From an uncultured Pseudomonadales bacterium (lineage in GTDB: Bacteria; Patescibacteriota; Microgenomatia; UBA1400; PJMF01): a stretch of DNA of 57,209 nucleotides. Under the pieces are notes generated by a model. It saw only the letters and a list, made by a program, of their open reading frames with translations. It was not told the origin of the DNA and made no database searches. The position numbers and the translations under genes are program-made. Positions 6,541 to 20,086 of the stretch are shown one piece after another; within the stretch, counting starts at the first letter, position 1, and every line of letters begins with the position of its first letter. The stretch covers positions 1-57,209 of the forward strand of contig CAZFRD010000001.1 of NCBI GenBank assembly GCA_964521215.1, read 5' to 3'.

Positions 6541-6740
6541 TTAGTATAGTTTCAGTACTATGTGTAGTTATTACATATTAATAATTAGCTGTCAATAATG
6601 ACTCAGACTGGTAATAACTGTTACTAATAGGGATGATTAGCTTGGGAGTTTCAATATTGGTTTACGTCACAATAGTTTATCATAACAGTAAATTCATATG
6701 TCAGGCCAAACACTGTTGCCCTAGTGTTAGAATAATCACT

Positions 6741-7715
6741 ATGAAGGACACACGGCCACAATCGCAAATAATTATTTATCAGTCGAAAAGCGGATCTCTC
6801 GATTTCAGGGGAGATTATAAAAAAGAAACGATTTGGGCAACGCAAGCTCAGATTTCCGAACTTTTTAAAGCTGAACGATCAGTTGTAACTAAACACATTC
6901 GAAATATTTTACAAGAAAAAGAATTAGAACAAGATTTAGTATGTGCAAAATTTGCACATACTGCAACAGATGGTAAAACATATCAGACCAAATATTATAA
7001 TTTGGATGTAATTCTAGCCGTTGGATACAGAACCAGCACCAATCGTGCAATCCAGTTTCGCCAATGGGCTACAAAAACTCTTCGTAATCATATTATCAGA
7101 GGGTACACCTTAAACAAAAAACGCATTGGCAACAACTACTCTGAGTTTCTCAAAGCAGTGGAATCTATTAAAAAATTGTTACCAGCGAATTCAGAAATCA
7201 GTGCACGCGAGACTCTTGAACTTGTTAAGCTTTTTGCCGGAACCTGGTTATCATTGGACGCTTACGACAAAGGCAAACTGCCCAGATCAGGTGCCAATAT
7301 CAAGCAAGTTACCATCACTGCACAAGAACTACAGCATGCACTGGCTGAGCTAAAAGCTGATTTGCTGAAAAGAAACGGGGCAAGCGAATTGTTTGGGCAA
7401 GAAAAACAAACCGGCGGTCTCGCTGGAATTATTGGTACTGTTTTTCAATCTGCGTTTGGTACAGATGCTTACACAACGGTTGAGGCAAAAGCCGCACACC
7501 TGTTGTATTTCATTATCAAAAATCATCCCTTCACAGATGGCAATAAACGAAGTGGGGCATTTGCTTTTGTTTGGTTCTTAAACAAAGTGCACTTGCTTAA
7601 CCCAGCCAAAATTTCACCTGAAGCATTGACGGCACTAACTCTACTTGTGGCAGAAAGCAAACCGCAGGCTAAAGAGCAGATTATTGGATTATTGATGCTA
7701 TTGCTGAAGAAATAA
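6741..7715 (+). CDS. RhuM-family N-terminal domain fused to Doc (death-on-curing, Fic/DOC) domain
   Basis: The N-terminal region (IWATQAQISELF...YYNLDVILAVGYRTSTNRAIQFRQWATKTLR) matches the RhuM virulence-protein family. The C-terminus carries the Doc-type motif HPFTDGNKR at 7524-7550. ATG 6741 is preferred over the ORF-track start at 6633 because the first 36 aa look non-coding. Confidence 0.75.
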   Translation: MKDTRPQSQIIIYQSKSGSLDFRGDYKKETIWATQAQISELFKAERSVVTKHIRNILQEKELEQDLVCAKFAHTATDGKTYQTKYYNLDVILAVGYRTSTNRAIQFRQWATKTLRNHIIRGYTLNKKRIGNNYSEFLKAVESIKKLLPANSEISARETLELVKLFAGTWLSLDAYDKGKLPRSGANIKQVTITAQELQHALAELKADLLKRNGASELFGQEKQTGGLAGIIGTVFQSAFGTDAYTTVEAKAAHLLYFIIKNHPFTDGNKRSGAFAFVWFLNKVHLLNPAKISPEALTALTLLVAESKPQAKEQIIGLLMLLLKK

Positions 7716-7716
7716 C

Positions 7717-8142
7717 ATGCCAAAACGAACTGCAAGCGACGAACCAAGAGATTTAACCAGCCTGACTCAAAAGCAGAGTGATAGGTTGTGGGGTGTTACC
7801 AGTCCGTACTCAGAGGCTCGCTTGATCTTTGAAAGTCGGATTATGGACACGGCAGTTTCTCGGGTGTTTATTGAGGTGCAGGTTTCAATTAATCCACTGA
7901 CATTTGAGACTATCTTGGAACATCGGGATGAGTTTGCCGACGATGTGATAATCCAACAACTACTTGATCACTCAGAATATCTAGGAGAAGCAGAAGGCTA
8001 TGTTTCATTGGCCTTCTGCCAGCACTATGTTGACAGCACTGTGCTTATTAAAGCTCAAGAACACCTAGAATTTGCCAAAGAAACCATTTTTAAAATGCAC
8101 AACTGGATGTACCAGTATTTGAGCAAGCAATGGATGAATTGA
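7717..8142 (+). CDS. Hypothetical acidic protein, tightly coupled to the RhuM-Doc gene
   Basis: 141-aa ORF whose ATG lies one nucleotide after the upstream TAA (7713-7715). No recognisable domain. Confidence 0.5.
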   Translation: MPKRTASDEPRDLTSLTQKQSDRLWGVTSPYSEARLIFESRIMDTAVSRVFIEVQVSINPLTFETILEHRDEFADDVIIQQLLDHSEYLGEAEGYVSLAFCQHYVDSTVLIKAQEHLEFAKETIFKMHNWMYQYLSKQWMN

Positions 8143-8182
8143 GTTTTGGTTGAGGTGAAGATTTAAAGCAATACGTCTCTTT

Positions 8183-10054
8183 TTACAATTCAGTTGCTAA
8201 AAGCTTTCTTTTGAAATAGTCACTCGTTTCTTCATCTGTTGAATAAATATAACAACCCTTCATTCCCCTTGTCATTAGGGTCTTGTAGGTGTTTTTGATA
8301 ATCAAATCTGCTTTTTTCTCTGTTCCCTCAACACCTGCTTTCAGGTCTCGTTTATAACCATTTAATGATTTGTCCGACTTCGCTCTTTGGTTTGGTTGCG
8401 TGATTACCTTACCGTTTCGCACAATTAAGTCTGGACCAATAATTACCCCCACGTACTCAAGTTCCAATCCTTGGCAAGTATGAATGCAACCCACTTGGTT
8501 CACCGAATTGGGAGCAATCAAAAAAGTTGGTCCATCATCTTCCAAATTCCACTGCATGGCAAATGAATAATCTGGAAACTCGATGTCAAAAAGATGTTTA
8601 TTTTTCTTACTTACCCAGTTCCAACAGTATCCCGCTACGATCCTAGCCTTATTGTGAATATTTTGTGCAACAATTGCCGATCGTAGCTCAGTTGGGGAGT
8701 CAAAGACACGAAAGTCATATGAGAGGCCTCTAATTGAGAAATTAGCAGTAGGGTGAATTTCTAATACATTGCCAAGCCAAGCTAAATATCCGTCTGATCC
8801 GTTACATCTGAATTGAGACTCTAATTTTGCATGGGTCACTTCAGCTCCCAGCTGATTTGCCCAAACTCTAATGGCTTTACTATCACCGATATCTTTCCAG
8901 GTGACTCTCTGATCGTTATCGATGAAAAATATTGAAGTTTTTGCTGCGATAATTAGCTCCTTAATTTGGTTTTCACCCAAATGGCTAAAAATACCACCTT
9001 TTTCGTTCAACCTGTGAGCTTCATCAACAATCAACAAGTCGATTTCATTAATCGAAGTATTAATATACGAACCAGATGATTGAAACAAGATGGAAATAGT
9101 GCTTTTTTTCATTGTTCCAGAAAGTTTTGCTTCAAAAACTGCTCTAGGCGCAGCATTCTTTGTCACATAGTGAGCATTGAGTTGGTTGCTAATTGCTGAG
9201 ACAAGTAGCTGAATAGCAATTACCGACTTACCTGTTCCCGGTCCACCTTCAACAATGAATACCCGTTTTTGGACATCGGCACTGTCTTTTGCCAGTTGAA
9301 GAGCGGTTTCAAACACCAGTTTCTGATCATCGATTAAGATAAATTCTTGATTACCCAACATCATGGAAGCAAGTTTATCAGCCAATTCTTTACTTGGTCT
9401 TACATTGCCACTATCTATTCTATAGAGTAGGTCGGGTTTTCCACCATATTTGACAAACTTATGGATGAACTCTTGCAGTTTTTCTTTGTCTCCTCTGCAA
9501 AAAAGTGGCGCTTTTTCAATGTAAAAATCATAAAAGTTATTTGTAACCGTATCATTGTCAGCATGATTGTGAAGGTAGGCGCAGGGAATAAGATCAATAT
9601 TTTCTGAGTAAATAACCTCGTTAAAATTATTCAGCAGAGTTGAGTAAGACCAAGCTTGATAGGATGGATGGGGTCTATCGGTCTGACCATGATGGAATCT
9701 GGTAGAAATCACACCGTCTTTTGCAGTCATGGTAATATCGGTCCACTGTTTAAGTTCAATAATAATTACTTTTTCTGTTTTATTTTCATCAAGACCACTG
9801 ATAATGAAATCAACTCTATATTTGGTTCTCGGAATGGAATATTCAACCGCTACCATAGCATCATCGGGAATCGTGTCGCTATTCATTACATGGAACATAT
9901 AATTGCCAAGCGAGTTTTTCCACGAGTTGTATTCACTGCCGTTGAGTTCTACAGTAATTCCGAGTTTTTCACTCACTTGCGATCGGATAATATCTTCTAT
10001 GCCATTGGCCGCATCTAACAAGAATTGTTGTTTAGTAGAATGGTAAACAATCAT
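8183..10054 (-). CDS. DUF2075-type ATPase/helicase with N-terminal PD-(D/E)xK-like nuclease motif
   Basis: 623 aa. Putative nuclease motif RVDFIISG...IIIELKQW at ~9745-9820. Walker A GGPGTGKS at 9224-9247 and Walker B LLIVDEAHR. C-terminal CIHTCQGLELEYVGVIIGPDL and TLMTRGMKGCYIY, as in DUF2075 and SF1 helicase-like proteins. Confidence 0.8.
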   Translation of the reverse strand: MIVYHSTKQQFLLDAANGIEDIIRSQVSEKLGITVELNGSEYNSWKNSLGNYMFHVMNSDTIPDDAMVAVEYSIPRTKYRVDFIISGLDENKTEKVIIIELKQWTDITMTAKDGVISTRFHHGQTDRPHPSYQAWSYSTLLNNFNEVIYSENIDLIPCAYLHNHADNDTVTNNFYDFYIEKAPLFCRGDKEKLQEFIHKFVKYGGKPDLLYRIDSGNVRPSKELADKLASMMLGNQEFILIDDQKLVFETALQLAKDSADVQKRVFIVEGGPGTGKSVIAIQLLVSAISNQLNAHYVTKNAAPRAVFEAKLSGTMKKSTISILFQSSGSYINTSINEIDLLIVDEAHRLNEKGGIFSHLGENQIKELIIAAKTSIFFIDNDQRVTWKDIGDSKAIRVWANQLGAEVTHAKLESQFRCNGSDGYLAWLGNVLEIHPTANFSIRGLSYDFRVFDSPTELRSAIVAQNIHNKARIVAGYCWNWVSKKNKHLFDIEFPDYSFAMQWNLEDDGPTFLIAPNSVNQVGCIHTCQGLELEYVGVIIGPDLIVRNGKVITQPNQRAKSDKSLNGYKRDLKAGVEGTEKKADLIIKNTYKTLMTRGMKGCYIYSTDEETSDYFKRKLLATEL

Positions 10055-10398
10055 AGTTCTGTGTACTTTTCATGTCGATTTTTTGCTTTGGCAACTGGAT
10101 ATTTTTTTTCGTTGATACGTAGTTTTTTTTCTAGTGCCTCGTTAATATCTATTTTAAAATCGTGACTCATTAATAATACCCAGTAGAGCACATCCGCTAA
10201 CTCTTCGCCCAAATTAGCTCTGTGTTTTTCAAGATGGGATTTGATTTCATCATCATTCTTCCACTGAAAGTGTTCCGCCACTTCTGCGGCTTCGAGTAGA
10301 AGAGAGATAGCCAAATCTTTTGGTTTATGGAATTGTCTCCAATTACGGGCATTGCGGAAGGCAATAATTTTTTTAATTAATTCTCCAATTTGTGTCAC
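10051..10398 (-). CDS. MazG-like nucleotide pyrophosphohydrolase
   Basis: 115 aa, all-alpha, with metal-binding motifs LLEAAEVAEHFQW and LGEELADVLYWVLL typical of small MazG/NTP-PPase proteins. Its stop overlaps the DUF2075 start by 4 nt (10051-10054). Confidence 0.75.
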   Translation of the reverse strand: MTQIGELIKKIIAFRNARNWRQFHKPKDLAISLLLEAAEVAEHFQWKNDDEIKSHLEKHRANLGEELADVLYWVLLMSHDFKIDINEALEKKLRINEKKYPVAKAKNRHEKYTEL

Positions 10399-10434
10399 AA
10401 GATCATTTTACCATTTAATTGATATACTTAGCCA

Positions 10435-10725
10435 ATGAAGGATAATCACCTACCTATGCCGTATTTTGTTTATTTAGTCCAGTGTGCCGATCAGTCATTA
10501 TATTGTGGTTATACCAAAGACTTGAAGCGAAGAGTAGCAGAGCACAATGACTCAAAAAAAGGCGCAAAATATACTCGAGCCAAACGACCCGTCGAATTAG
10601 TATATGCAGAGGCGCACGCCACCCTCAGCGAAGCCTTAAAGCGAGAGTACCAGATCAAGCGGCTAACAAGCCATGGAAAACGGGCCTTGATAAACAATCC
10701 CTCTTTTCACGAGTGCTGCGGCTAA
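10435..10725 (+). CDS. GIY-YIG nuclease family protein (UPF0213/YhbQ-like)
   Basis: 96 aa. YFVYLVQCADQSLYCGYTKDLKRRVAEHN matches the GIY...YxGxT..L..R...H pattern. Downstream it has PVELVYAE and EYQIKRL. Confidence 0.8.
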   Translation: MKDNHLPMPYFVYLVQCADQSLYCGYTKDLKRRVAEHNDSKKGAKYTRAKRPVELVYAEAHATLSEALKREYQIKRLTSHGKRALINNPSFHECCG

Positions 10726-11634: not shown

Positions 11635-12249
11635 CTATTTAACCAATGTGGCGAGAACTAATAATCGTTTCCACGTGGTGCCTGGTGGAGTACAAGTCAT
11701 GAGTACGAGGTCTGTTTCAGAATTATTTTCTAAGTAGTTGATGGCGTCTGGGTTGACGGTTTTGACTTGGGTGACTTGATACTTGAAAGGGGCGCCTTGG
11801 TAGTAAATCGTGATTTCATCATTGGGTTCCATTTTATTGAGCAAGTAAAAAATGGAGTTGTAGCGGCGCGCCATCGTTATATCGCCACTGGCGTGAGCAA
11901 ATAAAAACATGGTTTTATCTTCTCCTGGCAGACCGGTGCCTTTGGCATGAGCTACGCCTTTGGTCAGCTCTCGTTGATAGATGTTTGAATCGTAGGGATC
12001 GACATCAACCACAATGGGTGCGTTGGCTTCAATTTTTGGAATTAGAATGCCAAAATCGGTGTTGACCGGCTCGAGTGCCTTTTTAGTAGCCACTTCATTG
12101 AAGAATAGTTGTTGCACCTGAGCTGGCGTAGATTGTTTTAGGGTATACCGTGTTTCGGCTATTAGTAACGGGCCATACTCATAACCAAGGCTAATAGCGC
12201 CAAACAAAAGCAGTGCCAACCCTATTGCTAGCGCCAATTTATTTTTCAT
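11635..12249 (-). CDS. Sortase family transpeptidase
   Basis: N-terminal TM anchor (MKNKLALAIGLALLLFGAISL), then FAHASGD and the catalytic LVLMTCTPPG (TLxTC-like) motif. ATG 12249 is preferred over 12291. It overlaps the 3' end of the giant LPATG protein gene by ~11 nt. Confidence 0.8.
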   Translation of the reverse strand: MKNKLALAIGLALLLFGAISLGYEYGPLLIAETRYTLKQSTPAQVQQLFFNEVATKKALEPVNTDFGILIPKIEANAPIVVDVDPYDSNIYQRELTKGVAHAKGTGLPGEDKTMFLFAHASGDITMARRYNSIFYLLNKMEPNDEITIYYQGAPFKYQVTQVKTVNPDAINYLENNSETDLVLMTCTPPGTTWKRLLVLATLVK

Positions 12250-15200
12250 TCCGCTTGCCGAAGAAGATGATGTAGAGTCCAGCCAAGACAATCAACCCGA
12301 CGCCAATTGGTAAGCCAAAGCGACTGAGAAATGACATAAAGGTTTCGGTGGCCGAACCAAGTACGGCACCATCGGTTGACTCAGTTGCCGAAGGTTCTGC
12401 CGTGGTTTCATCGGTGGCAGTTTCATCTTCAGTAGTTCCAGTTGTATCTTCAGCTGATTCTCCCGCGGTGGTTCCACCAGCAGTATCTCCGCCAATGAAG
12501 GCTGAGCCAGCAGGAATGGCACCCAGTTGAACCGTTTGAGTGGTGCCATTGTTTGACTCGATGATCACAGTTTTAATCTCCAGATCACCAACTAAGTCAG
12601 AAGCATTACCATTGACGTCGAAGGCGCGGATCACGTAGTAGTACGTATCATCACAATTAGGCTTAGATGTTGTCAGGGTGTATTCCTGGCTTGGCCCAAT
12701 GGGGATAGTTGTTACTCGAGTTTCTGGTTTGGCGGTGAAGTGATCGCTATCCGTACTGCGATAAACTTCAACGCTGGTGGTTTGACCGTCGTTGGCAGTC
12801 CTGAAGCCGATTTTATCCTCACAGTAGTTGCCTGGGTTTTTGCTGTAGTTAACCGGTTTGTCTGGACCACTGGTTTCAAGTCCAACTCGCACTTCATCGC
12901 TAATCTTATCTGGTCCATCACCACTGACGACCACTCGGAAGTCGTAATTTTGGGTGTTTTCCAAGTCTTTGGCTTCACAGTATCCAGAATTTCCACCAGC
13001 TTTGATGGTATAGTTGGTCGAAATATTTGACCAGGCACCATCATTCTTCTGTTGTTGACACTGGGCGGTCAGACTTAGGTTATCAGTATTCAGGACTACA
13101 AAATCAACTTTCAAAGAAGTCTGGTTGGTGATTGCATCAAGGGTAAACTCAGCACTATTGTTGTAGGGTTCTTCAATTCTGACAGAAGTTAGGGCTTGCG
13201 CAGGTTGGGCAAACCAGAGTGAGAATCCTACTACGAAAAGTCCCAGCAAAACTTTGAGACCTGAGTTGCGCGAACGCTTACTCATGATCAGGAAGCCAGC
13301 GCCAGCCACGATACTCAAGAGTGCTAAGAAAGTTAACCAGGCTCGAGCTCCCGTTGCGGGCAACTCCGTGCTGGCGCCCAACACCGTGCCTTGCTTTTCT
13401 TCGGTTTTACCAACCTGATATTCGCTGAAGGGAGTTTGATCCTTAACCATTGCTACTTGGGTACCAGCAAAATGCTCTTCGCCAAAATGACCCCAGGCTC
13501 CGTTAAAGTCAACTCCGCCACTGCTAGCAGTGAACTCTGGATCGGAAAGAGCCAGTAAATCGTTAGTTTCTCCGCCAGTTTTGTCTGATTGCTCACTCGT
13601 ACCTGTGGCCCAAACCATATCTGGGTAGACACCGGGATCGGCCAAGGTACCAACTTTGGTTTTGTAGGTCAGGGTGACAATTTCGTCTTTAGCTAAGTCG
13701 CCCAAGTTCCATTCGCCAGGTGACTGATAGTTGGGATCACCAGTTGTGCCATCAGCTCGTAGGTCCGTACCATCGGATGATTCAGCTGTGAAACTATCTG
13801 GAACGTAGGTGAATTGTGCTGGTGGCACATCTAAGACAGTAGCATCATAGACTGGTCCACCAACTGCCATCACTCTAATAGTGTATGTCACTTCATCACC
13901 TGATGTGACGTCAGTGGGCCAAGCGTTATTTGTCTTCAGAATGTACAACCGACTATCAATAAAGTTGCCAAAGTTGGCTACCTCAGTTTCGCCAGATTGA
14001 TCAATGACCACTTCGCGGCAAACAGTATCGACTGGTTCAGCGGGTTCAGTTACTTGCCAGCCCCAGGCAGTGCGGTCTTCCTCACATAGGGTGTAGGTGC
14101 CCTTTTTAAGGTTAGCAAAGCTGAACTCACCATTTTCATCGGTGACTACTTGTTGATCAACATCAGGACCAGACAGACTGATGCCCCAGTATTGCATCTT
14201 TGATTCACCATCATCAAAGTTACCATCTTGGTTCTCATCAAAATATTTAACTCCCCCAATTGATCCTGGTTGGTAGTTGCCAACGTAGCAATTGATGTTT
14301 GCACCAGGATTGACCACGACACGATGTCCCTCTGGATCTGGTGCCGGTTGGGCATTAACTTGGGTGACACCTAAGATTCGATCAATAACACTCGATGCAT
14401 CTGCGTCTTGGATAGGTGTGGGAGTGGGGGTTGAGGTGGGACCACCATAATTTCCACAGCGAATATCAGTCACACCCATGACTGGACACCAGTTGCCCCA
14501 TTCCTCCTGATAACTTAAATCGTGATTGATGTCGTAAAATAAACTACAATTTTCGAACTCTGTACATGGTCTCGCATCTCCATATGAGACCAGACTTGCA
14601 TAGCCATTTGCCTGACATGCTTTCAGCGCACACGTTGCCGCATCACCGCATTCATTCCATCCTTCGCACATACCATGATGCCCATAGGCTCTTCCAGGAC
14701 CTGTAATTAGAGTTCCTTCAAGATCCTCGGTACAATAAATATTTGATTGTTCCCAACCGTCTTGTAAAGTTTCGGATAGGAAATAGGTGTTAGGATCCAA
14801 GCTGAACTGGGTACTGCCACCAGTCCCTGTAGTTTGGGTGGCTAAAAAGCCATTAGTTGCTTCCATACTCATCGCCCAGCCACTCATAAGTTCCTCGCCA
14901 GAGTCATATTTACCATTGGTATTTTGGTCGAGGAATTTGTTTACAGTGACAAATCCTTTATGGATGTTGCCAAATTCCGTGTAGACAATGTATCCGGAAT
15001 TATTCACTGTCACGCCTTCACAGACTGGATACTCATCTATATCATGGTTGGGCGAGTCGTTATTAGCAGGATTATTGAGTGAACGCATATCTTCCCACTC
15101 ATCTTTTTTAACCTCACAAACTCGATAGTCACCAACTTCATCAATCAAGTGATCAAAGACTGCTCTACCATCACCGTTGGTGTTTGCCTCACCAACCAAA

Positions 15201-18200
15201 CTCCAACCATCGTCTTCAACCTGATAGAGTCGGAAGGTAAACGTGGGATCGCCAATCCAAAACTCTTGTCCATCCGTTCTACCGAGCACGCCATCAGTAT
15301 CTTCATACTTATCCACGTTAACAGTAGCCTTTTCAAAGTTACCGAAGTCAAAGCCAGTTAAGTTTTCTCCAGCATCTAGTAATACAGCGTTGTATAAACC
15401 AAATTCATTGGGATCTGTTGCTACATAATCACCACCACTCAAGTCCTCGGCGATTTTATACATGCCTGGTAGAAGATTCTCAAAGATGTAGTTGCCAGAA
15501 TTATCAGTAGTGGTTTCCGTCAAATATACATAGTTGATGCCATCGTGCTTGTAAAGCTCAATCGTCCAACCTTCATATGTTGTATCCGTATTATCAAACT
15601 GACCATTGACGTTGACGTCGATGTATTTCATGCCAGCAAATGATCCTTTTGCAATAAATTTATTTGTGAGAGTAATTTCTGGAACCTGCTCACCGACAGT
15701 CACTGATGCAGGATAGTTAGTGATCACATCACTTCCTACGGTGGTTGATTGGTATGCCCAATCTTCGACTGGAGCTTCAAAGACATGATAGTCGCCGTAG
15801 GGCACATCGGTAAATGTTGCACAACCGTTTTCTCCCACCATGCCAGCAAACATTTGTCTGTCAATTTGAGCTCTAAAGTTGCCATTATTTGCATTATCGC
15901 CATAATTGTCGTCCCAAATTGCTAAGTTCAAATCACCTTCAAACCCAGTTAAATAATATGAATATTGATGCAGATTATTGAACCCTCCCCAAGTAACATT
16001 GCCTCCGTTAACCTTTAGTTCCAATGCGCCGGGCACACTGAGTAAATCATCACCACTCACCCAACCACCTGTTCCGTAGGGGATGCCCACTGGTCTAAAA
16101 GAGTAACCAGCGTCTGCAATCATTGCCTCATTACCATAACGATAGGTTCCCGAGGTATAGATGACATAGGCGCCAGAGCTGAGGTTGGTAGTGGTACCGG
16201 CACCACTGTTGACAGGAATTTCTTCGTCAAAACCAGTGGGTTGACTTAGACCAACTTTCCAGCCACTCAGTGGATTGCCACTACTGTCTTGCTTACAGAC
16301 AGTGACGTCATTTTTTGGCAAACCATTGCATATAACTTGGATGTCGTCGACGAACATACCGAGGGAGTCAGCTCTACCTAGCTCTGTAAAACGGATTTCG
16401 GTGAGCGTTGTGGTTGCAGTAAAAGTATAACTTTCTGATTGCCAGTTGGTATTGCTACTACCAGAAATGACACCACTGTTAAAGACTTCGGAACCTCCAA
16501 CTTGCACTTGAAGATGGTTGTTGCTGTGGTTTGGACGGGCAGAATACTTCCAACTGACGGTGTATTCATTTCCAATAATTGTAGGAATGCTTTGAGCAAG
16601 GGTGATAGAGGCGGGCTCGCCACTAAAGTCATTGATTGGCCCAGTCCAGTCTGTATCTAGCTCTACATATTGTGAACCACTGGCTGGCAACCAACCGTTT
16701 ACTCCACGATGCAGTTCTATTTGTGGCTCTGGTCTGTCATGGCCACTATATGAGGCAGATCCTCCATACCAAGTAGCTGTCCAACCAGCCATTTCGGCAT
16801 TATCAAAAGCATCCCATCCAGCACTCTGATTGACCTCTGGTGTTTCAAAACTACTATTGGCTGCCATGGCCTCACGACACTCATTGACCCAAGTACATTC
16901 GCTCGAACAACTTGATTGACCGTTTAATTGTCCATAATCACACTGTTCTTGGTTATTGACTATGCCATCGCCACAATACGCTGTTTTAGTATTGGTAAAC
17001 GTACAAGTGACATCCTCGCCAGCAATCAAGCTAAATGAAGCAGTTCCGTTGCCAAAATTATCTTGAGGATCCCATGGTTTATTTGATTGACAACTAGTTA
17101 GTTCCATCGACCAACCATTCAGAGATTGCTCAGATATATCATAAATATTTGGGGGAAGATCGGTGATTTCATAAGTGTTGCTCAACGTTGGATCTGAGTC
17201 ATCATCTAAACTAAATTCGGTTGCAGTTAACCCAACTCCACCAAACGAAAAGACGAAGTCTTGGGCATCATCGGGTTGGGCATCCTTAATAATTGTAATA
17301 GATCCTGGAGCAGGAGTGGGTGTGGGAGTTGAAGTGGGAGTAGCCGTTGGGGTCGGAGTCGATGTTGGAACTACCGAATTAACAAAGTCGCAAGAGATGA
17401 TGACATTGTCACCAACAGTAATATTTTGCACTCCGGAATTTCCACCGTTGTCGGTAAAAGAGGAACCAATGTTTGCTCCTGCCTGATCTCGACAAGTCGC
17501 AGACGTAAAGTTGTAGCCTGATGGTATCTGATTAGTTAGCTCAACAATTGAATAGCCACTGCCAGCAGTCAGTTTTCCACTTTCTGCCGTACTTGCTTGA
17601 CCATTGGCATCTGTACCGAGATTGTTTGAATAGTCGTTTGGTCCAGTCACACTAAACATCCAGTTGTTGTCTCCCCTCGTAGCATCGCTCACTGTGCCAA
17701 TATACTTGTTAACCGAAATGGCTCCTCCACAAGTTTGGGCTGCAAAGGTGGCTAGGGTAGTAGCAAGAGTGGCAAAGTCAGACGTGATAACATCTGCGCT
17801 TAAGTCAGTTCCTACGGTGGGACCAGATATTGCCTTCAAATTATTTACATCTAAGCCGTCGCCGATTCCTAGGGCAATAATTCTAACCCCAGATGTTTTT
17901 AGTGTATTCGCTATAAGTACGGCCTCAGCTACAGCTTGAGCCTCACTGACAGTCGAACCGTTATCAACGCGATTGGGATTGCCATCTGAGGCAAATAGCA
18001 CTAGGTCTGGATTGGATCGATTTGGTAGTGTAGATTGAGCTTTGATTAAGCCATCTTCCCAATTGGTAGAACCACCACTCGATGGTGTATTGATGGCATT
18101 TTTAACCGTGGTTACATCTCCAGAAAATGTTTGCAAAACAGCTGCCGTAGAATCAAAATCTGTTACTGAAAATTGAGTGGGTGTCCCTGGGAGCAACGCA

Positions 18201-20086
18201 TCAACAAAAGCATTAAAGGCAGTTTTCATGGCTGATAATTCACTACTATCAATACTGCCAGAACTATCCAGAACTAAGGCAATATCCAACCCACAAGCTT
18301 GAGAAAGAATTGGATTCGGGGCAGGAGTAATTGCTGCAATGGTAACACTGTCCGAACAGTTGTTATTTGATTCATTATTTTCTGAAACGTCTGAGTCAGG
18401 ATCAACTTGACATTTATTACTACCACCCGTTCTTGGATTTGTTAAAACTCCAGTGACAAGGGGAGTGACTATAAAAGAAACGTCAAACGAACCACCGGCA
18501 GCAATATCAACATATCTTGTGCCACTACCCTGGCTAACTTTGCACGTTAAATTCTCAGAAGAGCTAATACTGCAAATTATACCGCCGTTATCGGTAATAC
18601 CGACTAAGTTATCTACCGTAGGTGAGCCATAACTCACCTCACTGTCATTGCTTGGCAAATTGTCAACTAGAATGGTTTCATTTTCATCAAAATCAGCTTG
18701 TATGTTACCACTATTAGTCACATGTAATATCCACTTGAATTGAGAACCCAGAGTTAAAGTTCCGTTAACGTCATTAGTTTTTGCTACTGTTAGATCAGGA
18801 TAATCACCGACAGTCACAGCAAAAGAATCAGTACCAGTATCTTTGATATCTGAAGCACTGCCACACTCAGATGAACTGTAATGTTTAGTTATCTTGGCCG
18901 ACCAACTTCCCAAAGGGGCGTTAGGAGGTAGGGCGTAATTAGCATTTTTTGACGGAAAATTTCTTGAACAAGCCCCAATATTATGATTTGTGGTTCCGTC
19001 AGGTTCGATTAAGTCAATTCTATACCATGTTGAGTTGTTGTTCTGGAGATTGGTTGAGTTGGTATAAACTACTTCACCCTGTTTGTAACTTGATTTTTCA
19101 ACAGAAAATGAGTTATTGGAGTATGTAGCAATAAAGATTGTGAAATGATCAAGACCAGAAGCTTTAATTTCAGTGTCTTCAGTTATTTGCTCAACTTTAA
19201 CTTGATCGTCTGTGCTGACAAGCTTGATATCATCGGCAGACATATCTAATTTTGCCTCCTCCGCAGTTTTTTCAATATATTTTATTTCAGCAGTCGCTCC
19301 CTCTAACTTTGGCAGAGTTAACTCGTATTTAAACGTCCCATCCGCCATCTCCGTCGTAATATCGTAAGCATACGTAGCATCTGTCTGGACGGAATCTGGT
19401 AAATTAAGCTCGCTTACTAGTACTTGTTGAATCTTGAGTGGGGAGCGCAAGCTCTCATCTTTGGGCAGACAAGAAAAAGTCATGCTGACAGCATCATCGA
19501 GAGGGAATTGATAACTTACACCTGGTTGAACTTTAGTTTTGGTCTCTGCCACACCCGTAGCTTCATCGACCGTCCAGAGGGTTTCACCAGCAGAGAGGTC
19601 ATTCTCATCTGGATTCACGCAGGTCTGCTCAACGAAACTACTTGGGCCATCAAACACTATCGCGCCATTAACTAGTTGAAATGAACGATTAAAATTATCA
19701 CCAACAATTAGAGTCCCACTGATAAAAGTGATTGGTGTACAAGCTTCACCCGAGCATGTGCCAGCATAAATATCAGCTCCAAACACACCTTCCGCCATTT
19801 TCTCCAAGTCTCCTTGAGCCGCTTGCTCGACTTGAGGGTCTTGCTTTTCGTCAAAATAGGTTAAAACATAAGGAAGAGCCTGATCGGTTTTTACTCTGAG
19901 TTGAAATTCATGATTACTAGCATTGAAAGACAAGTCCACCGCATCCGCACTTACGGTAGTCTCAGCTTGCACTACAACAGGGTTTGCCATTAATACTGGC
20001 AATGCTGCGAGCGGTTGAAAAGCGAGAAAAAAAACGTTGAGGGAACTAAATACTTGCAAAATAAGACGACGGACGCGTTTGTTCAT
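12239..20086 (-). CDS. Giant (2615 aa) multidomain surface protein/adhesin with internal LPATG sortase signal
   Basis: One uninterrupted ORF with an N-terminal signal peptide. vWA domain with MIDAS DSSGS (~17850-18310). Pro/Thr linkers at ~17305-17385 and ~14406-14448. CGDGIVNNQEQCD cysteine-rich repeat at ~16900-16985. Several SdrD-B/Cna-B-like repeats (e.g. GGVKYFDENQDGNFDDGE) and a DUF11-like repeat. LPATG at 13349-13363 is followed by a TM helix and KRSR. About 350 further residues follow and end in a second TM helix plus GKRNEK. Confidence 0.85.
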   Translation of the reverse strand: MNKRVRRLILQVFSSLNVFFLAFQPLAALPVLMANPVVVQAETTVSADAVDLSFNASNHEFQLRVKTDQALPYVLTYFDEKQDPQVEQAAQGDLEKMAEGVFGADIYAGTCSGEACTPITFISGTLIVGDNFNRSFQLVNGAIVFDGPSSFVEQTCVNPDENDLSAGETLWTVDEATGVAETKTKVQPGVSYQFPLDDAVSMTFSCLPKDESLRSPLKIQQVLVSELNLPDSVQTDATYAYDITTEMADGTFKYELTLPKLEGATAEIKYIEKTAEEAKLDMSADDIKLVSTDDQVKVEQITEDTEIKASGLDHFTIFIATYSNNSFSVEKSSYKQGEVVYTNSTNLQNNNSTWYRIDLIEPDGTTNHNIGACSRNFPSKNANYALPPNAPLGSWSAKITKHYSSSECGSASDIKDTGTDSFAVTVGDYPDLTVAKTNDVNGTLTLGSQFKWILHVTNSGNIQADFDENETILVDNLPSNDSEVSYGSPTVDNLVGITDNGGIICSISSSENLTCKVSQGSGTRYVDIAAGGSFDVSFIVTPLVTGVLTNPRTGGSNKCQVDPDSDVSENNESNNNCSDSVTIAAITPAPNPILSQACGLDIALVLDSSGSIDSSELSAMKTAFNAFVDALLPGTPTQFSVTDFDSTAAVLQTFSGDVTTVKNAINTPSSGGSTNWEDGLIKAQSTLPNRSNPDLVLFASDGNPNRVDNGSTVSEAQAVAEAVLIANTLKTSGVRIIALGIGDGLDVNNLKAISGPTVGTDLSADVITSDFATLATTLATFAAQTCGGAISVNKYIGTVSDATRGDNNWMFSVTGPNDYSNNLGTDANGQASTAESGKLTAGSGYSIVELTNQIPSGYNFTSATCRDQAGANIGSSFTDNGGNSGVQNITVGDNVIISCDFVNSVVPTSTPTPTATPTSTPTPTPAPGSITIIKDAQPDDAQDFVFSFGGVGLTATEFSLDDDSDPTLSNTYEITDLPPNIYDISEQSLNGWSMELTSCQSNKPWDPQDNFGNGTASFSLIAGEDVTCTFTNTKTAYCGDGIVNNQEQCDYGQLNGQSSCSSECTWVNECREAMAANSSFETPEVNQSAGWDAFDNAEMAGWTATWYGGSASYSGHDRPEPQIELHRGVNGWLPASGSQYVELDTDWTGPINDFSGEPASITLAQSIPTIIGNEYTVSWKYSARPNHSNNHLQVQVGGSEVFNSGVISGSSNTNWQSESYTFTATTTLTEIRFTELGRADSLGMFVDDIQVICNGLPKNDVTVCKQDSSGNPLSGWKVGLSQPTGFDEEIPVNSGAGTTTNLSSGAYVIYTSGTYRYGNEAMIADAGYSFRPVGIPYGTGGWVSGDDLLSVPGALELKVNGGNVTWGGFNNLHQYSYYLTGFEGDLNLAIWDDNYGDNANNGNFRAQIDRQMFAGMVGENGCATFTDVPYGDYHVFEAPVEDWAYQSTTVGSDVITNYPASVTVGEQVPEITLTNKFIAKGSFAGMKYIDVNVNGQFDNTDTTYEGWTIELYKHDGINYVYLTETTTDNSGNYIFENLLPGMYKIAEDLSGGDYVATDPNEFGLYNAVLLDAGENLTGFDFGNFEKATVNVDKYEDTDGVLGRTDGQEFWIGDPTFTFRLYQVEDDGWSLVGEANTNGDGRAVFDHLIDEVGDYRVCEVKKDEWEDMRSLNNPANNDSPNHDIDEYPVCEGVTVNNSGYIVYTEFGNIHKGFVTVNKFLDQNTNGKYDSGEELMSGWAMSMEATNGFLATQTTGTGGSTQFSLDPNTYFLSETLQDGWEQSNIYCTEDLEGTLITGPGRAYGHHGMCEGWNECGDAATCALKACQANGYASLVSYGDARPCTEFENCSLFYDINHDLSYQEEWGNWCPVMGVTDIRCGNYGGPTSTPTPTPIQDADASSVIDRILGVTQVNAQPAPDPEGHRVVVNPGANINCYVGNYQPGSIGGVKYFDENQDGNFDDGESKMQYWGISLSGPDVDQQVVTDENGEFSFANLKKGTYTLCEEDRTAWGWQVTEPAEPVDTVCREVVIDQSGETEVANFGNFIDSRLYILKTNNAWPTDVTSGDEVTYTIRVMAVGGPVYDATVLDVPPAQFTYVPDSFTAESSDGTDLRADGTTGDPNYQSPGEWNLGDLAKDEIVTLTYKTKVGTLADPGVYPDMVWATGTSEQSDKTGGETNDLLALSDPEFTASSGGVDFNGAWGHFGEEHFAGTQVAMVKDQTPFSEYQVGKTEEKQGTVLGASTELPATGARAWLTFLALLSIVAGAGFLIMSKRSRNSGLKVLLGLFVVGFSLWFAQPAQALTSVRIEEPYNNSAEFTLDAITNQTSLKVDFVVLNTDNLSLTAQCQQQKNDGAWSNISTNYTIKAGGNSGYCEAKDLENTQNYDFRVVVSGDGPDKISDEVRVGLETSGPDKPVNYSKNPGNYCEDKIGFRTANDGQTTSVEVYRSTDSDHFTAKPETRVTTIPIGPSQEYTLTTSKPNCDDTYYYVIRAFDVNGNASDLVGDLEIKTVIIESNNGTTQTVQLGAIPAGSAFIGGDTAGGTTAGESAEDTTGTTEDETATDETTAEPSATESTDGAVLGSATETFMSFLSRFGLPIGVGLIVLAGLYIIFFGKRNEK
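13283..13363 (-). other. Internal cell-wall sorting signal (LPATG + hydrophobic helix + KRSR) inside the giant ORF
   Basis: LPATG at aa 2242-2246, then ARAWLTFLALLSIVAGAGFLIM and SKRSRNSG. No stop codon follows. The next residues (LKVLLGLFVVGFSLWFAQPAQA) look like a signal peptide or TM re-entry segment. Confidence 0.75.

Follow-up and report, generated by a model that had tools for sequence, protein, structure and literature searches.

A MazG-like gene co-translated with a Schlafen-type nuclease-helicase gene: a candidate anti-phage module of bacteria and archaea

Nhi, a protein composed of a PD-(D/E)xK and a DUF2075 part, displays nuclease as well as bipolar helicase activity, blocks the accumulation of phage DNA and is countered by a phage single-stranded DNA-binding protein (SSB), and one of its homologues is toxic when expressed alone (bioRxiv 776245). 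An Nhi-like protein of the same organisation has been described, too (Millman et al. 2022 preprint). DUF2075 NTPases have been found next to restriction enzymes which are specific for modified DNA (PMC6765204), and at least 60 genomes show a conserved MutT/Nudix pyrophosphohydrolase gene of unknown function in linkage with a SauUSI-like type IV enzyme (PMC3141236; PMC7641849). The present analysis concerns a gene pair within contig CAZFRD010000001.1 (assembly GCA_964521215.1) of an uncultured bacterium which is placed within the Patescibacteriota by GTDB; the 57,209 nucleotides of this contig are referred to as the window. The pair consists of two minus-strand open reading frames (ORFs), one encoding a 115-aa MazG-like protein (10051-10398, GTG start) and the other a 623-aa nuclease-helicase (8183-10054). 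Hundreds of species of bacteria and archaea possess this tightly coupled pair, frequently with restriction enzymes as neighbours, so that it most likely represents an undescribed variant of a virus-defence system.

Rechecking reproduced exactly the positions and lengths of both ORFs as well as the 4-nt overlap at 10051-10054 which had been reported in the original prediction. The latter had concluded that the two genes are almost certainly co-translated, and indeed the MazG ORF ends inside the start codon of the 623-aa ORF, the overlap reading ATGA, a stop/start arrangement common to 40 of 134 homologous pairs; the coordinates as well as the coupling of translation have thus been verified. All motifs quoted at that time are present in the translation of the large protein, namely RVDFIISG (residues 80-87), IIIELKQW (97-104), GGPGTGKS (270-277) and LLIVDEAHR (340-348), and the C-terminal DUF2075 signature CQGLELEYVGVIIGPDL is located at residues 527-543. 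An Rfam scan and a promoter/terminator scan of the region revealed no RNA families, promoters or terminators beyond background.

The small gene (10051-10398, minus strand) encodes a MazG-like and, more specifically, DCTPP1-like all-alpha deoxynucleoside triphosphate (dNTP) pyrophosphohydrolase, which narrows down the MazG-fold identity proposed initially. The protein matches the Pfam families PF12643 (MazG-like; E 2e-15, 57.3 bits versus a cutoff of 27) and PF03819 (MazG; E 1e-5, 26.1 bits versus a cutoff of 22), and it can be aligned end to end with the PDB sequences of the archaeal pyrophosphatase 4qgp (9e-19) and of mouse and human DCTPP1, also known as RS21-C6 (1e-17). Among 157 partner sequences, the residues W20, H24, E36, E39, E42, W46, E66, D69, K92, N96 and Y100 are conserved to at least 97%, with E36, E39, E66, D69 and W46 being invariant and W20 and E42 reaching 98-99%. 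E36, E39 and E42 constitute the first metal-binding motif, E36-x-x-E39-x-x-E42 (EAAEVAE; 10273-10293, minus strand), and align to E63, E66 and E69 of DCTPP1, while E66 and D69 of the second motif, E65-E66-x-x-D69 (EELAD; 10192-10206, minus strand), align to E95 and D98; W20 and W46 correspond to W47 and W73. These DCTPP1 counterparts we take, from the RS21-C6 structures, to be the Mg-binding residues and the two tryptophans which stack on the pyrimidine. As the metal ligands and the base-stacking tryptophans of DCTPP1 are conserved, the 115-aa protein is almost certainly catalytically active, and an enzymatic role appears more plausible than one in binding.

The large gene (8183-10054, minus strand) was originally read as encoding a nuclease joined to a superfamily 1 (SF1) helicase of the DUF2075 type, which is borne out by Pfam, by AlphaFold2 (AF2) modelling combined with Foldseek searches and by the conservation of active-site residues. 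Residues 263-607 (8234-9268) match PF09848, i.e. SLFN-g3_helicase, formerly DUF2075, with an E value of 4.3e-97 over profile positions 1-354 of 354; Walker A (GGPGTGKS, residues 270-277, 9224-9247) and Walker B (DEAH, residues 344-347, 9014-9025) are invariant in an alignment of 34 homologues. The AF2 model of the full-length protein has a predicted local distance difference test (pLDDT) score of 81, and its top neighbour in the PDB is human SLFN11 (E 1.2e-9), followed by the SF1B helicases RecD2, Dna2, Dda and Upf1. When the helicase was compared directly with PDB sequences, by sequence as well as by profile, only P-loop-level matches were obtained. The N-terminal domain, which comprises residues 1-256 (9287-10054) and consists of a PD-(D/E)xK core with helical flanks, is modelled with a pLDDT of 91.9 when treated alone, and the order of its secondary structure elements, alpha-beta-beta-beta-alpha-beta, is that expected for a restriction-endonuclease-like fold. 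PD-(D/E)xK nucleases, i.e. Card1, EcoO109I, NucS/EndoMS, BsmI and HamA, lead the list of its Foldseek matches, with weak scores. The predicted active site is formed by E71, D82 and E100-L-K102 (9749-9844, minus strand); an alignment of 121 homologous N-termini shows no exception at E71, D82 and E100 and at least 90% conservation of K102, and across 34 full-length homologues all four residues are invariant, matching the classic D...(D/E)xK signature. In view of these scores, we consider the nuclease assignment to be supported well by motif and topology and weakly by the fold search. Searching a database with residues 1-256 revealed no other architectures containing them, as fragments of the same family alone were returned, and an exhaustive profile search yielded forms of 620-650 aa and of about 780-815 aa only.

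To what extent the two genes belong together can be read from other genomes. With the helicase alone as query, 443 relatives were retrieved from 185,579 species genomes, and the best 80 loci were examined. At 72 of these 80 a MazG-like ORF is present immediately upstream on the same strand, with a gap of -62 to +57 nt. The remaining eight comprise one locus with an inserted gene, three with MazG in downstream or convergent position, one at which MazG is truncated to a remnant by the end of the contig, one which is uninformative and two which truly lack MazG. MazG is hence linked, within about 1.2 kb, at 77 of the 79 informative loci among the best 80 of the 443 relatives. Intact helicases without MazG amount to 4 of about 86 informative helicase loci (L048, L062, L163 and L164). 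The reciprocal search covered the closest 80 MazG loci, which are 58-67% identical; a DUF2075 gene was found directly downstream at 57 of them and within 1.2 kb at 63, six of which have one gene in between. Considering all fetched loci, the overlap of 4 nt recurs in the 40 pairs mentioned above, and about 100 of the 134 pairs lie within 5 nt of each other. The adjacency of MazG and helicase is far beyond chance and their linkage near-obligate. Conserved adjacency in other genomes had been named in the original prediction as a check, and it holds across phyla and in both prokaryotic domains.

Carriers of the pair are found among Patescibacteria, Bacteroidota, Proteobacteria, Verrucomicrobiota, Melainabacteria, Omnitrophota and Spirochaetia as well as among metagenome-assembled genomes of Nano- and Bathyarchaeia. 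Helicase identity amounts to 47-57% in Patescibacteria, Bacteroidota, Proteobacteria, Verrucomicrobia, Melainabacteria, Halobacteria and Methanobacteria. According to an annotated record the pair resides on a haloarchaeal plasmid; a Methanosphaera plasmid carries a helicase homologue, and no MazG was found there. Homologues in culturable organisms include those of Marinobacter similis A3d10 (NZ_CP007151.1), Pedobacter sp. CAN_A7, Flavobacterium suzhouense KCTC 42107, Priestia aryabhattai (plasmid NZ_CP083270.1) and Halalkalicoccus jeotgali B3 (plasmid 1). More than 8,000 close sequences were returned across bacteria and archaea, especially from the CRISPR-poor Patescibacteria, and a few hundred of the 185,579 species genomes, less than 1%, match. 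The flanking genes differ from locus to locus. An identity of 47-57% across domains, plasmid carriage and presence in less than 1% of species indicate that the pair is accessory and horizontally transferred.

The relatives also disclose a recurrent connection with restriction of modified DNA. At 7 of the 80 MazG-anchored loci MazG is coupled, rather than to the helicase, to a protein of 290-370 aa. Its profile hits the PUA-like EVE/UPF0310 structures 2p5d (1.4e-7) and 1wmm (1e-6) in the PDB, and its C-terminus matches the HNH domain of E. coli McrA (6ghc, 3.6e-5), some members appearing PD-(D/E)xK-like instead. EVE combined with a nuclease is the architecture of restriction endonucleases dependent on DNA modification, and the family of these MazG-coupled proteins (290-371 aa, without Pfam matches; L089:1188-2300, L113, L115, L132, L104, L116, L097, L150:3147-4184 and L007:4863-5978) probably consists of unannotated type IV restriction enzymes. 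Both kinds of partner meet at L007, with the gene row MazG, EVE-nuclease and DUF2075, while L150 shows the row MazG, RadC and EVE-nuclease. On a Priestia aryabhattai plasmid, a gene for an MrcB_N protein (1.5e-51) overlaps MazG by 4 nt and the DUF2075 gene follows; an ABC-three-component system, a restriction endonuclease, a MutT gene and a type I restriction-modification system flank this row. SauUSI-like genes encoding a PLD nuclease, an SF2 helicase and DUF3427 are found directly downstream of the pair at L008, L011 and L065. Further immediate neighbours are HNH, RmuC, type I, II and IIG restriction components, RhuM/Fic (PDC-S23, PDC-S05) and a Roc-COR-TIR protein. By a qualitative count, defence genes are frequent beside the pair, nearness to such genes having been named in the original prediction as a further check.

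Two of these surroundings may be recorded separately. The SauUSI-like gene downstream of the pair in Marinobacter algicola DG893 (L065:8526-12374) encodes a 1,282-aa protein with the domain order methyltransferase, PLD, SF2 helicase, Peptidase_S24 and DUF3427, i.e. a SauUSI-like protein with a LexA-like module. On the Hymenobacter canadensis plasmid NZ_CP114769.1 (L163, 8001-11987) two paralogous DUF2075 nuclease-helicase genes stand side by side without MazG, directly downstream of a BPTD_3080-family restriction enzyme gene, a methyltransferase gene and a DUF4747 gene.

The original prediction of a candidate anti-phage module is supported by these findings. We favour the explanation that the pair is a self-contained, mobile module directed against phages or other mobile DNA, in which an Nhi-like effector is accompanied by a dNTP-sanitising partner. 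To this composite reading we assign a probability of about 0.5; a defence role as such we rate higher and the specific role of MazG lower. The reading builds on the gene coupling, domain identities, conserved catalytic residues, conservation across phyla, module shuffling (see below) and association with modification-dependent nucleases, from which we infer defence function, substrates and division of labour. Also in its favour are the accessory, mobile type of distribution, a domain architecture equal to that of validated defence proteins such as Nhi, and the published linkage of SauUSI with MutT. The 623-aa protein would be the effector, in which a Schlafen-type SF1B motor would move the PD-(D/E)xK nuclease along DNA of foreign origin or along replication intermediates of the phage, which are thereby degraded. 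The co-translated MazG would act through nucleotide chemistry and not as a mere structural subunit. Presumably, it hydrolyses non-canonical dNTPs, probably 5-modified pyrimidine dNTPs, which are either made by the phage or released when modified DNA is degraded. Such hydrolysis would starve the phage of protective precursors and, at the same time, keep modified bases out of the host chromosome, so that the nucleases of the neighbourhood spare self DNA.

A closer look at the combinations in which the two modules occur bears on how MazG might act. The MazG subfamily combines with PD-(D/E)xK-helicases of the window type, with the same architecture extended by a C-terminal Peptidase_S24 domain, with GIY-YIG-helicases and with GIY-YIG-helicase-S24 proteins. 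The nuclease domain is exchangeable, PD-(D/E)xK being replaced by GIY-YIG in relatives. Moreover, the phylogenies of MazG and helicase are not congruent: the helicase of the window is 75% identical to those of L001 and L002, yet the respective MazG proteins are only 38-40% identical, and MazG proteins 64% identical to that of the window adjoin GIY-YIG-type helicases which are only 31% identical. This incongruence points to module shuffling, according to which MazG would contribute portable chemistry rather than a co-adapted protein interface.

These observations are pertinent to a different proposal, namely that MazG is a regulator or enzymatic antitoxin. Were the nuclease-helicase toxic or gated by a nucleotide, MazG could silence it by destroying this nucleotide or by binding the enzyme, and an infection that removes or overwhelms MazG would unleash the nuclease following the logic of abortive infection. 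We regard this as possible, though rather unlikely. It would accord with the small gene being first, with the 4-nt overlap and the near-obligate linkage, with the rarity of helicase loci from which MazG is missing (only 4 of about 86 informative ones) and with the toxicity of one Nhi homologue when produced alone (bioRxiv 776245). However, the shuffling of MazG among divergent helicases and its pairing with unrelated EVE-HNH nucleases argue against co-adapted neutralisation. Furthermore, MazG keeps an invariant catalytic site, the gene order is reversed at L039 and L061, intact helicases do exist without MazG at the four loci listed above, and no candidate ligand is known.

Another way in which the catalytic activity of MazG could serve immunity is the depletion of canonical dNTPs, dNTP depletion being an established defence strategy. 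Hydrolysis of dCTP or other dNTPs upon infection would starve the phage and add a third route to those of dCTP deaminase and dGTPase, with the nuclease-helicase acting as sensor or second effector. Homology to dCTP pyrophosphatase 1 and the conserved catalytic site speak for this possibility, but a constitutive, co-translated enzyme turning over canonical dNTPs would impose a heavy cost on its host, and no regulatory domain is visible in the 115-aa protein. As, in addition, the repeated association with readers of modified bases suggests substrates of a non-canonical kind, we hold canonical dNTP depletion to be unlikely.

A role outside immunity is suggested by what some relatives carry. A LexA/UmuD-type S24 tail is present in 41 of 143 helicases (about 29%), and all 41 long C-terminal tails align to LexA/UmuD. 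The glycine of the Ala/Cys-Gly cleavage site, the serine of the G-x-S-M motif and a lysine are invariant in these tails, which by their residues represent a complete self-cleavage apparatus and suggest RecA-stimulated self-cleavage of a Schlafen-type helicase-nuclease (S24-bearing homologues include P0057 from Kaiserbacteria CP064968.1 and P0036, loci L022, L050, L053, L072, L076 and L090). RadC, composed of JAB and UPF0758_N, is the commonest immediate neighbour, tightly coupled and situated either after the helicase or between MazG and helicase; the RadC-coupled loci belong to a Patescibacteria-rich clade (L006, L025, L032, L042, L055, L067 and others; L086:1039-1749). One may, therefore, consider genome maintenance, with MazG sanitising the dNTP pool and the nuclease-helicase processing damaged or stalled forks in a SLFN11-like manner as part of a DNA-damage response. 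In addition to the intact S24 modules and the RadC linkage, the abundance of the family, 62-76% conserved in the small genomes of Patescibacteria, and SLFN11 as best structural match would suit such a function. Its patchy distribution with evident cross-domain transfer, its carriage on plasmids, its location in restriction islands and its physical linkage to type IV-like nucleases would not, and the window protein itself has neither companion: it ends at residue 623 with no tail past the helicase alignment, hence no S24 domain, and RadC, having been considered as a component of the window locus, was dismissed for being absent from the window. All in all, we deem genome maintenance improbable.

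Finally, that the pair is mere cargo serving the replication or counter-defence of a mobile element itself, e.g. a helicase belonging to a phage or plasmid together with a MazG of phage type, is highly improbable since, even though MazG-like pyrophosphatases are common in phages (PHROG 3301, E 3e-13), one phage record carries the pair and some contexts resemble element remnants (Bro-N, FtsK and MazE genes), only 4 of 50,697 phage records match the helicase, just one of them exceeding 30% identity, the helicase has no more than a marginal PHROG match and most loci are chromosomal with no replication or structural genes nearby. A phage origin of the pair was rejected in view of these four records. 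The phage record in question, one of the four, is that of Microcystis phage Mwe-JY31 (L166, PP438423.1, 22 kb), in which, at 7657-9863, a 110-aa ORF lies directly upstream of a helicase 53% identical to that of the window; it was deposited as a phage genome, and every gene in it is annotated as hypothetical.

Several points weigh against the favoured reading of a mobile anti-phage module itself. For all members of this clade, defence is a predicted function. The loci were sampled with sequence patterns from the window, which biases frequencies such as 77 of 79 towards close relatives. Roughly 25 of 145 immediate neighbours match defence models, a qualitative signal without background control, and the aggregate neighbour scan (PADLOC and Pfam) reports top families only and so yields no rigorous enrichment statistic for defence genes. 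In structure, the N-terminal domain matches solved nucleases only weakly (best E 0.04 in Foldseek), and sequence does not reveal the substrate specificity of a MazG-fold enzyme. According to Pfam neither window protein contains a modified-base reader (EVE/PUA, SRA, DUF3427 or MrcB_N), such readers being present only in related loci and as extra genes, so that modification dependence is, for the window locus, a conjecture. Conservation in streamlined Patescibacteria, the LexA-like S24 fusions and the linkage to RadC would be in keeping, too, with a role in DNA damage or repair.

The surroundings of the pair in the window had been described in the original prediction as resembling a defence island on account of a Doc toxin fusion and a GIY-YIG nuclease. 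The former stands: downstream and convergent, a RhuM-Fic/Doc fusion is encoded at 6633-7715 on the plus strand, which is a strong PADLOC candidate (PDC-S23, E 7e-109). RhuM-Fic recurs beside the MazG-helicase pair (L167) and accounts for 4 of the 145 immediate neighbours. The latter does not: the 96-aa GIY-YIG gene (10435-10725), located upstream and divergent, is no conserved neighbour, and the island is small and thin. As GIY-YIG is not among the recurrent neighbours, this small gene was also rejected as a third component. Only 36 bp (10399-10434) separate the divergent MazG and GIY-YIG genes, for which reason both promoters must overlap coding sequence or each other. Two nucleotides after RhuM-Fic, an ORF of 141 aa (7717-8142, plus strand) gives no match in Pfam, PADLOC, NCBIfam or PHROG and may be a partner or immunity gene of RhuM-Fic. 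Beyond the GIY-YIG gene, a HAD hydrolase, a sortase and a predicted surface protein of 2,615 aa are encoded. The gene of the last (11635-20086, minus strand) overlaps the downstream sortase gene, which, taken with the closest homologues, is suggestive of a genome of the Candidate Phyla Radiation (CPR)/Patescibacteria type. No tRNA genes were found in the 57-kb window. The closest relative (83% identity) is situated in a different neighbourhood, in which RhuM-Fic is again present along with a Zeta toxin and a Cas3-like helicase, and in a Kaiserbacteria genome the pair lies among Fic, MazE, FtsK, NYN and Bro-N genes.

If the pair really is such a defence module, a very widespread one has been missed by defence catalogues, and a MazG-fold, DCTPP1-like enzyme would join the short list of immune nucleotide-pool enzymes. 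It would also offer a possible explanation for the linkage of SauUSI and MutT reported in 2011. The S24 tails of relatives would provide a testable trigger in the form of RecA-stimulated self-cleavage of a Schlafen-type helicase-nuclease. Human relatives exist for both proteins, namely DCTPP1 and SLFN11/5/13, the latter of which restrict viruses and sense replication stress, and the pair may inform us about their evolutionary roots. Joining these strands, one may tentatively picture the pair as a prokaryotic counterpart of Schlafen-11-type replication-stress surveillance to which nucleotide-pool control is added. The DCTPP1-like enzyme would destroy modified dNTPs made by the phage, e.g. 5-hydroxymethyl-dCTP or dUTP derivatives, and protect the host chromosome, and the helicase-nuclease would degrade unprotected or replicating phage DNA, some 30% of the effectors being held inactive by the S24 tail until filaments of RecA on single-stranded DNA cause it to be cleaved off. 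In its entirety this picture is doubtful. Should it be true, nucleotide sanitation would be a general and convergent companion of nuclease-helicase restriction, provided by the MazG fold here and by Nudix in the case of SauUSI, and the pair would be among the commonest dedicated defences of the CPR/Patescibacteria.

Comparison with described systems shows what is shared and what is not. No named system covering the pair is contained in PADLOC-DB v2 or in the searchable literature, the coverage of which is incomplete, in agreement with the initial impression that the pair had no name; PADLOC v2 has no MazG model, and in the literature searched, again of incomplete coverage, we found no paper on a pair of MazG and DUF2075 nuclease-helicase. 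The MazG system predicted by DefensePredictor was rejected as an equivalent, being a different assembly in which MazG and a MazG-C kinase go along with NMAD and UDG. The best PADLOC matches of the helicase, PDC-S41 (3e-13) and AbiO (2e-11), are partial and weak, even though the PDC-S41 profile aligns to both the N- and the C-terminal parts of family members, and both are single-gene entries without a MazG component. To our knowledge PDC-S41 is a candidate that has yet to be validated.

Nhi (S. epidermidis SERP2475) and Nhi-like proteins resemble the window protein in carrying an N-terminal PD-(D/E)xK domain and a C-terminal DUF2075 SF1B helicase within one polypeptide and share its patchy horizontal spread, its carriage on plasmids and its nearness to restriction genes. 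Sequence similarity is low, however: the Nhi model of PADLOC covers only residues 236-418 (profile positions 179-331 of 470; E 7.2e-11), a partial match likewise seen in five relatives, and a match to the full-length Nhi profile was not obtained. Besides, Nhi acts as a single gene, whereas the clade of the window is linked to a MazG-like gene at nearly all informative loci (77 of 79), and S24, RadC and GIY-YIG variants as found among its relatives have not been described for Nhi. Group III Schlafens (SLFN11, 5 and 13) possess a helicase of the same Pfam family, SLFN11 being the top structural match, but they carry a Schlafen-core (AlbA_2-like) RNase, whereas the window protein has no such Pfam match and exhibits a PD-(D/E)xK fold at its N-terminus instead. 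The window MazG is alike to DCTPP1 (RS21-C6) and 4qgp over its whole length, with metal ligands and both tryptophans retained; in contrast to the stand-alone house-cleaning enzyme DCTPP1, its subfamily is coupled to a nuclease-helicase or to EVE-nucleases. The arrangement of SauUSI and MutT is similar in that a nuclease-helicase restriction protein stands beside a small nucleotide pyrophosphohydrolase, though analogous and not homologous: SauUSI combines a PLD nuclease, an SF2 helicase and the DUF3427 reader, while the window protein unites PD-(D/E)xK and an SF1 helicase without a reader, and the partner is a Nudix protein in the former case and an all-alpha MazG in the latter. What appears to be new is a putative defence protein of the nuclease-helicase kind with a near-obligate partner of MazG fold, which by analogy would be a functional parallel to SauUSI and its MutT protein.

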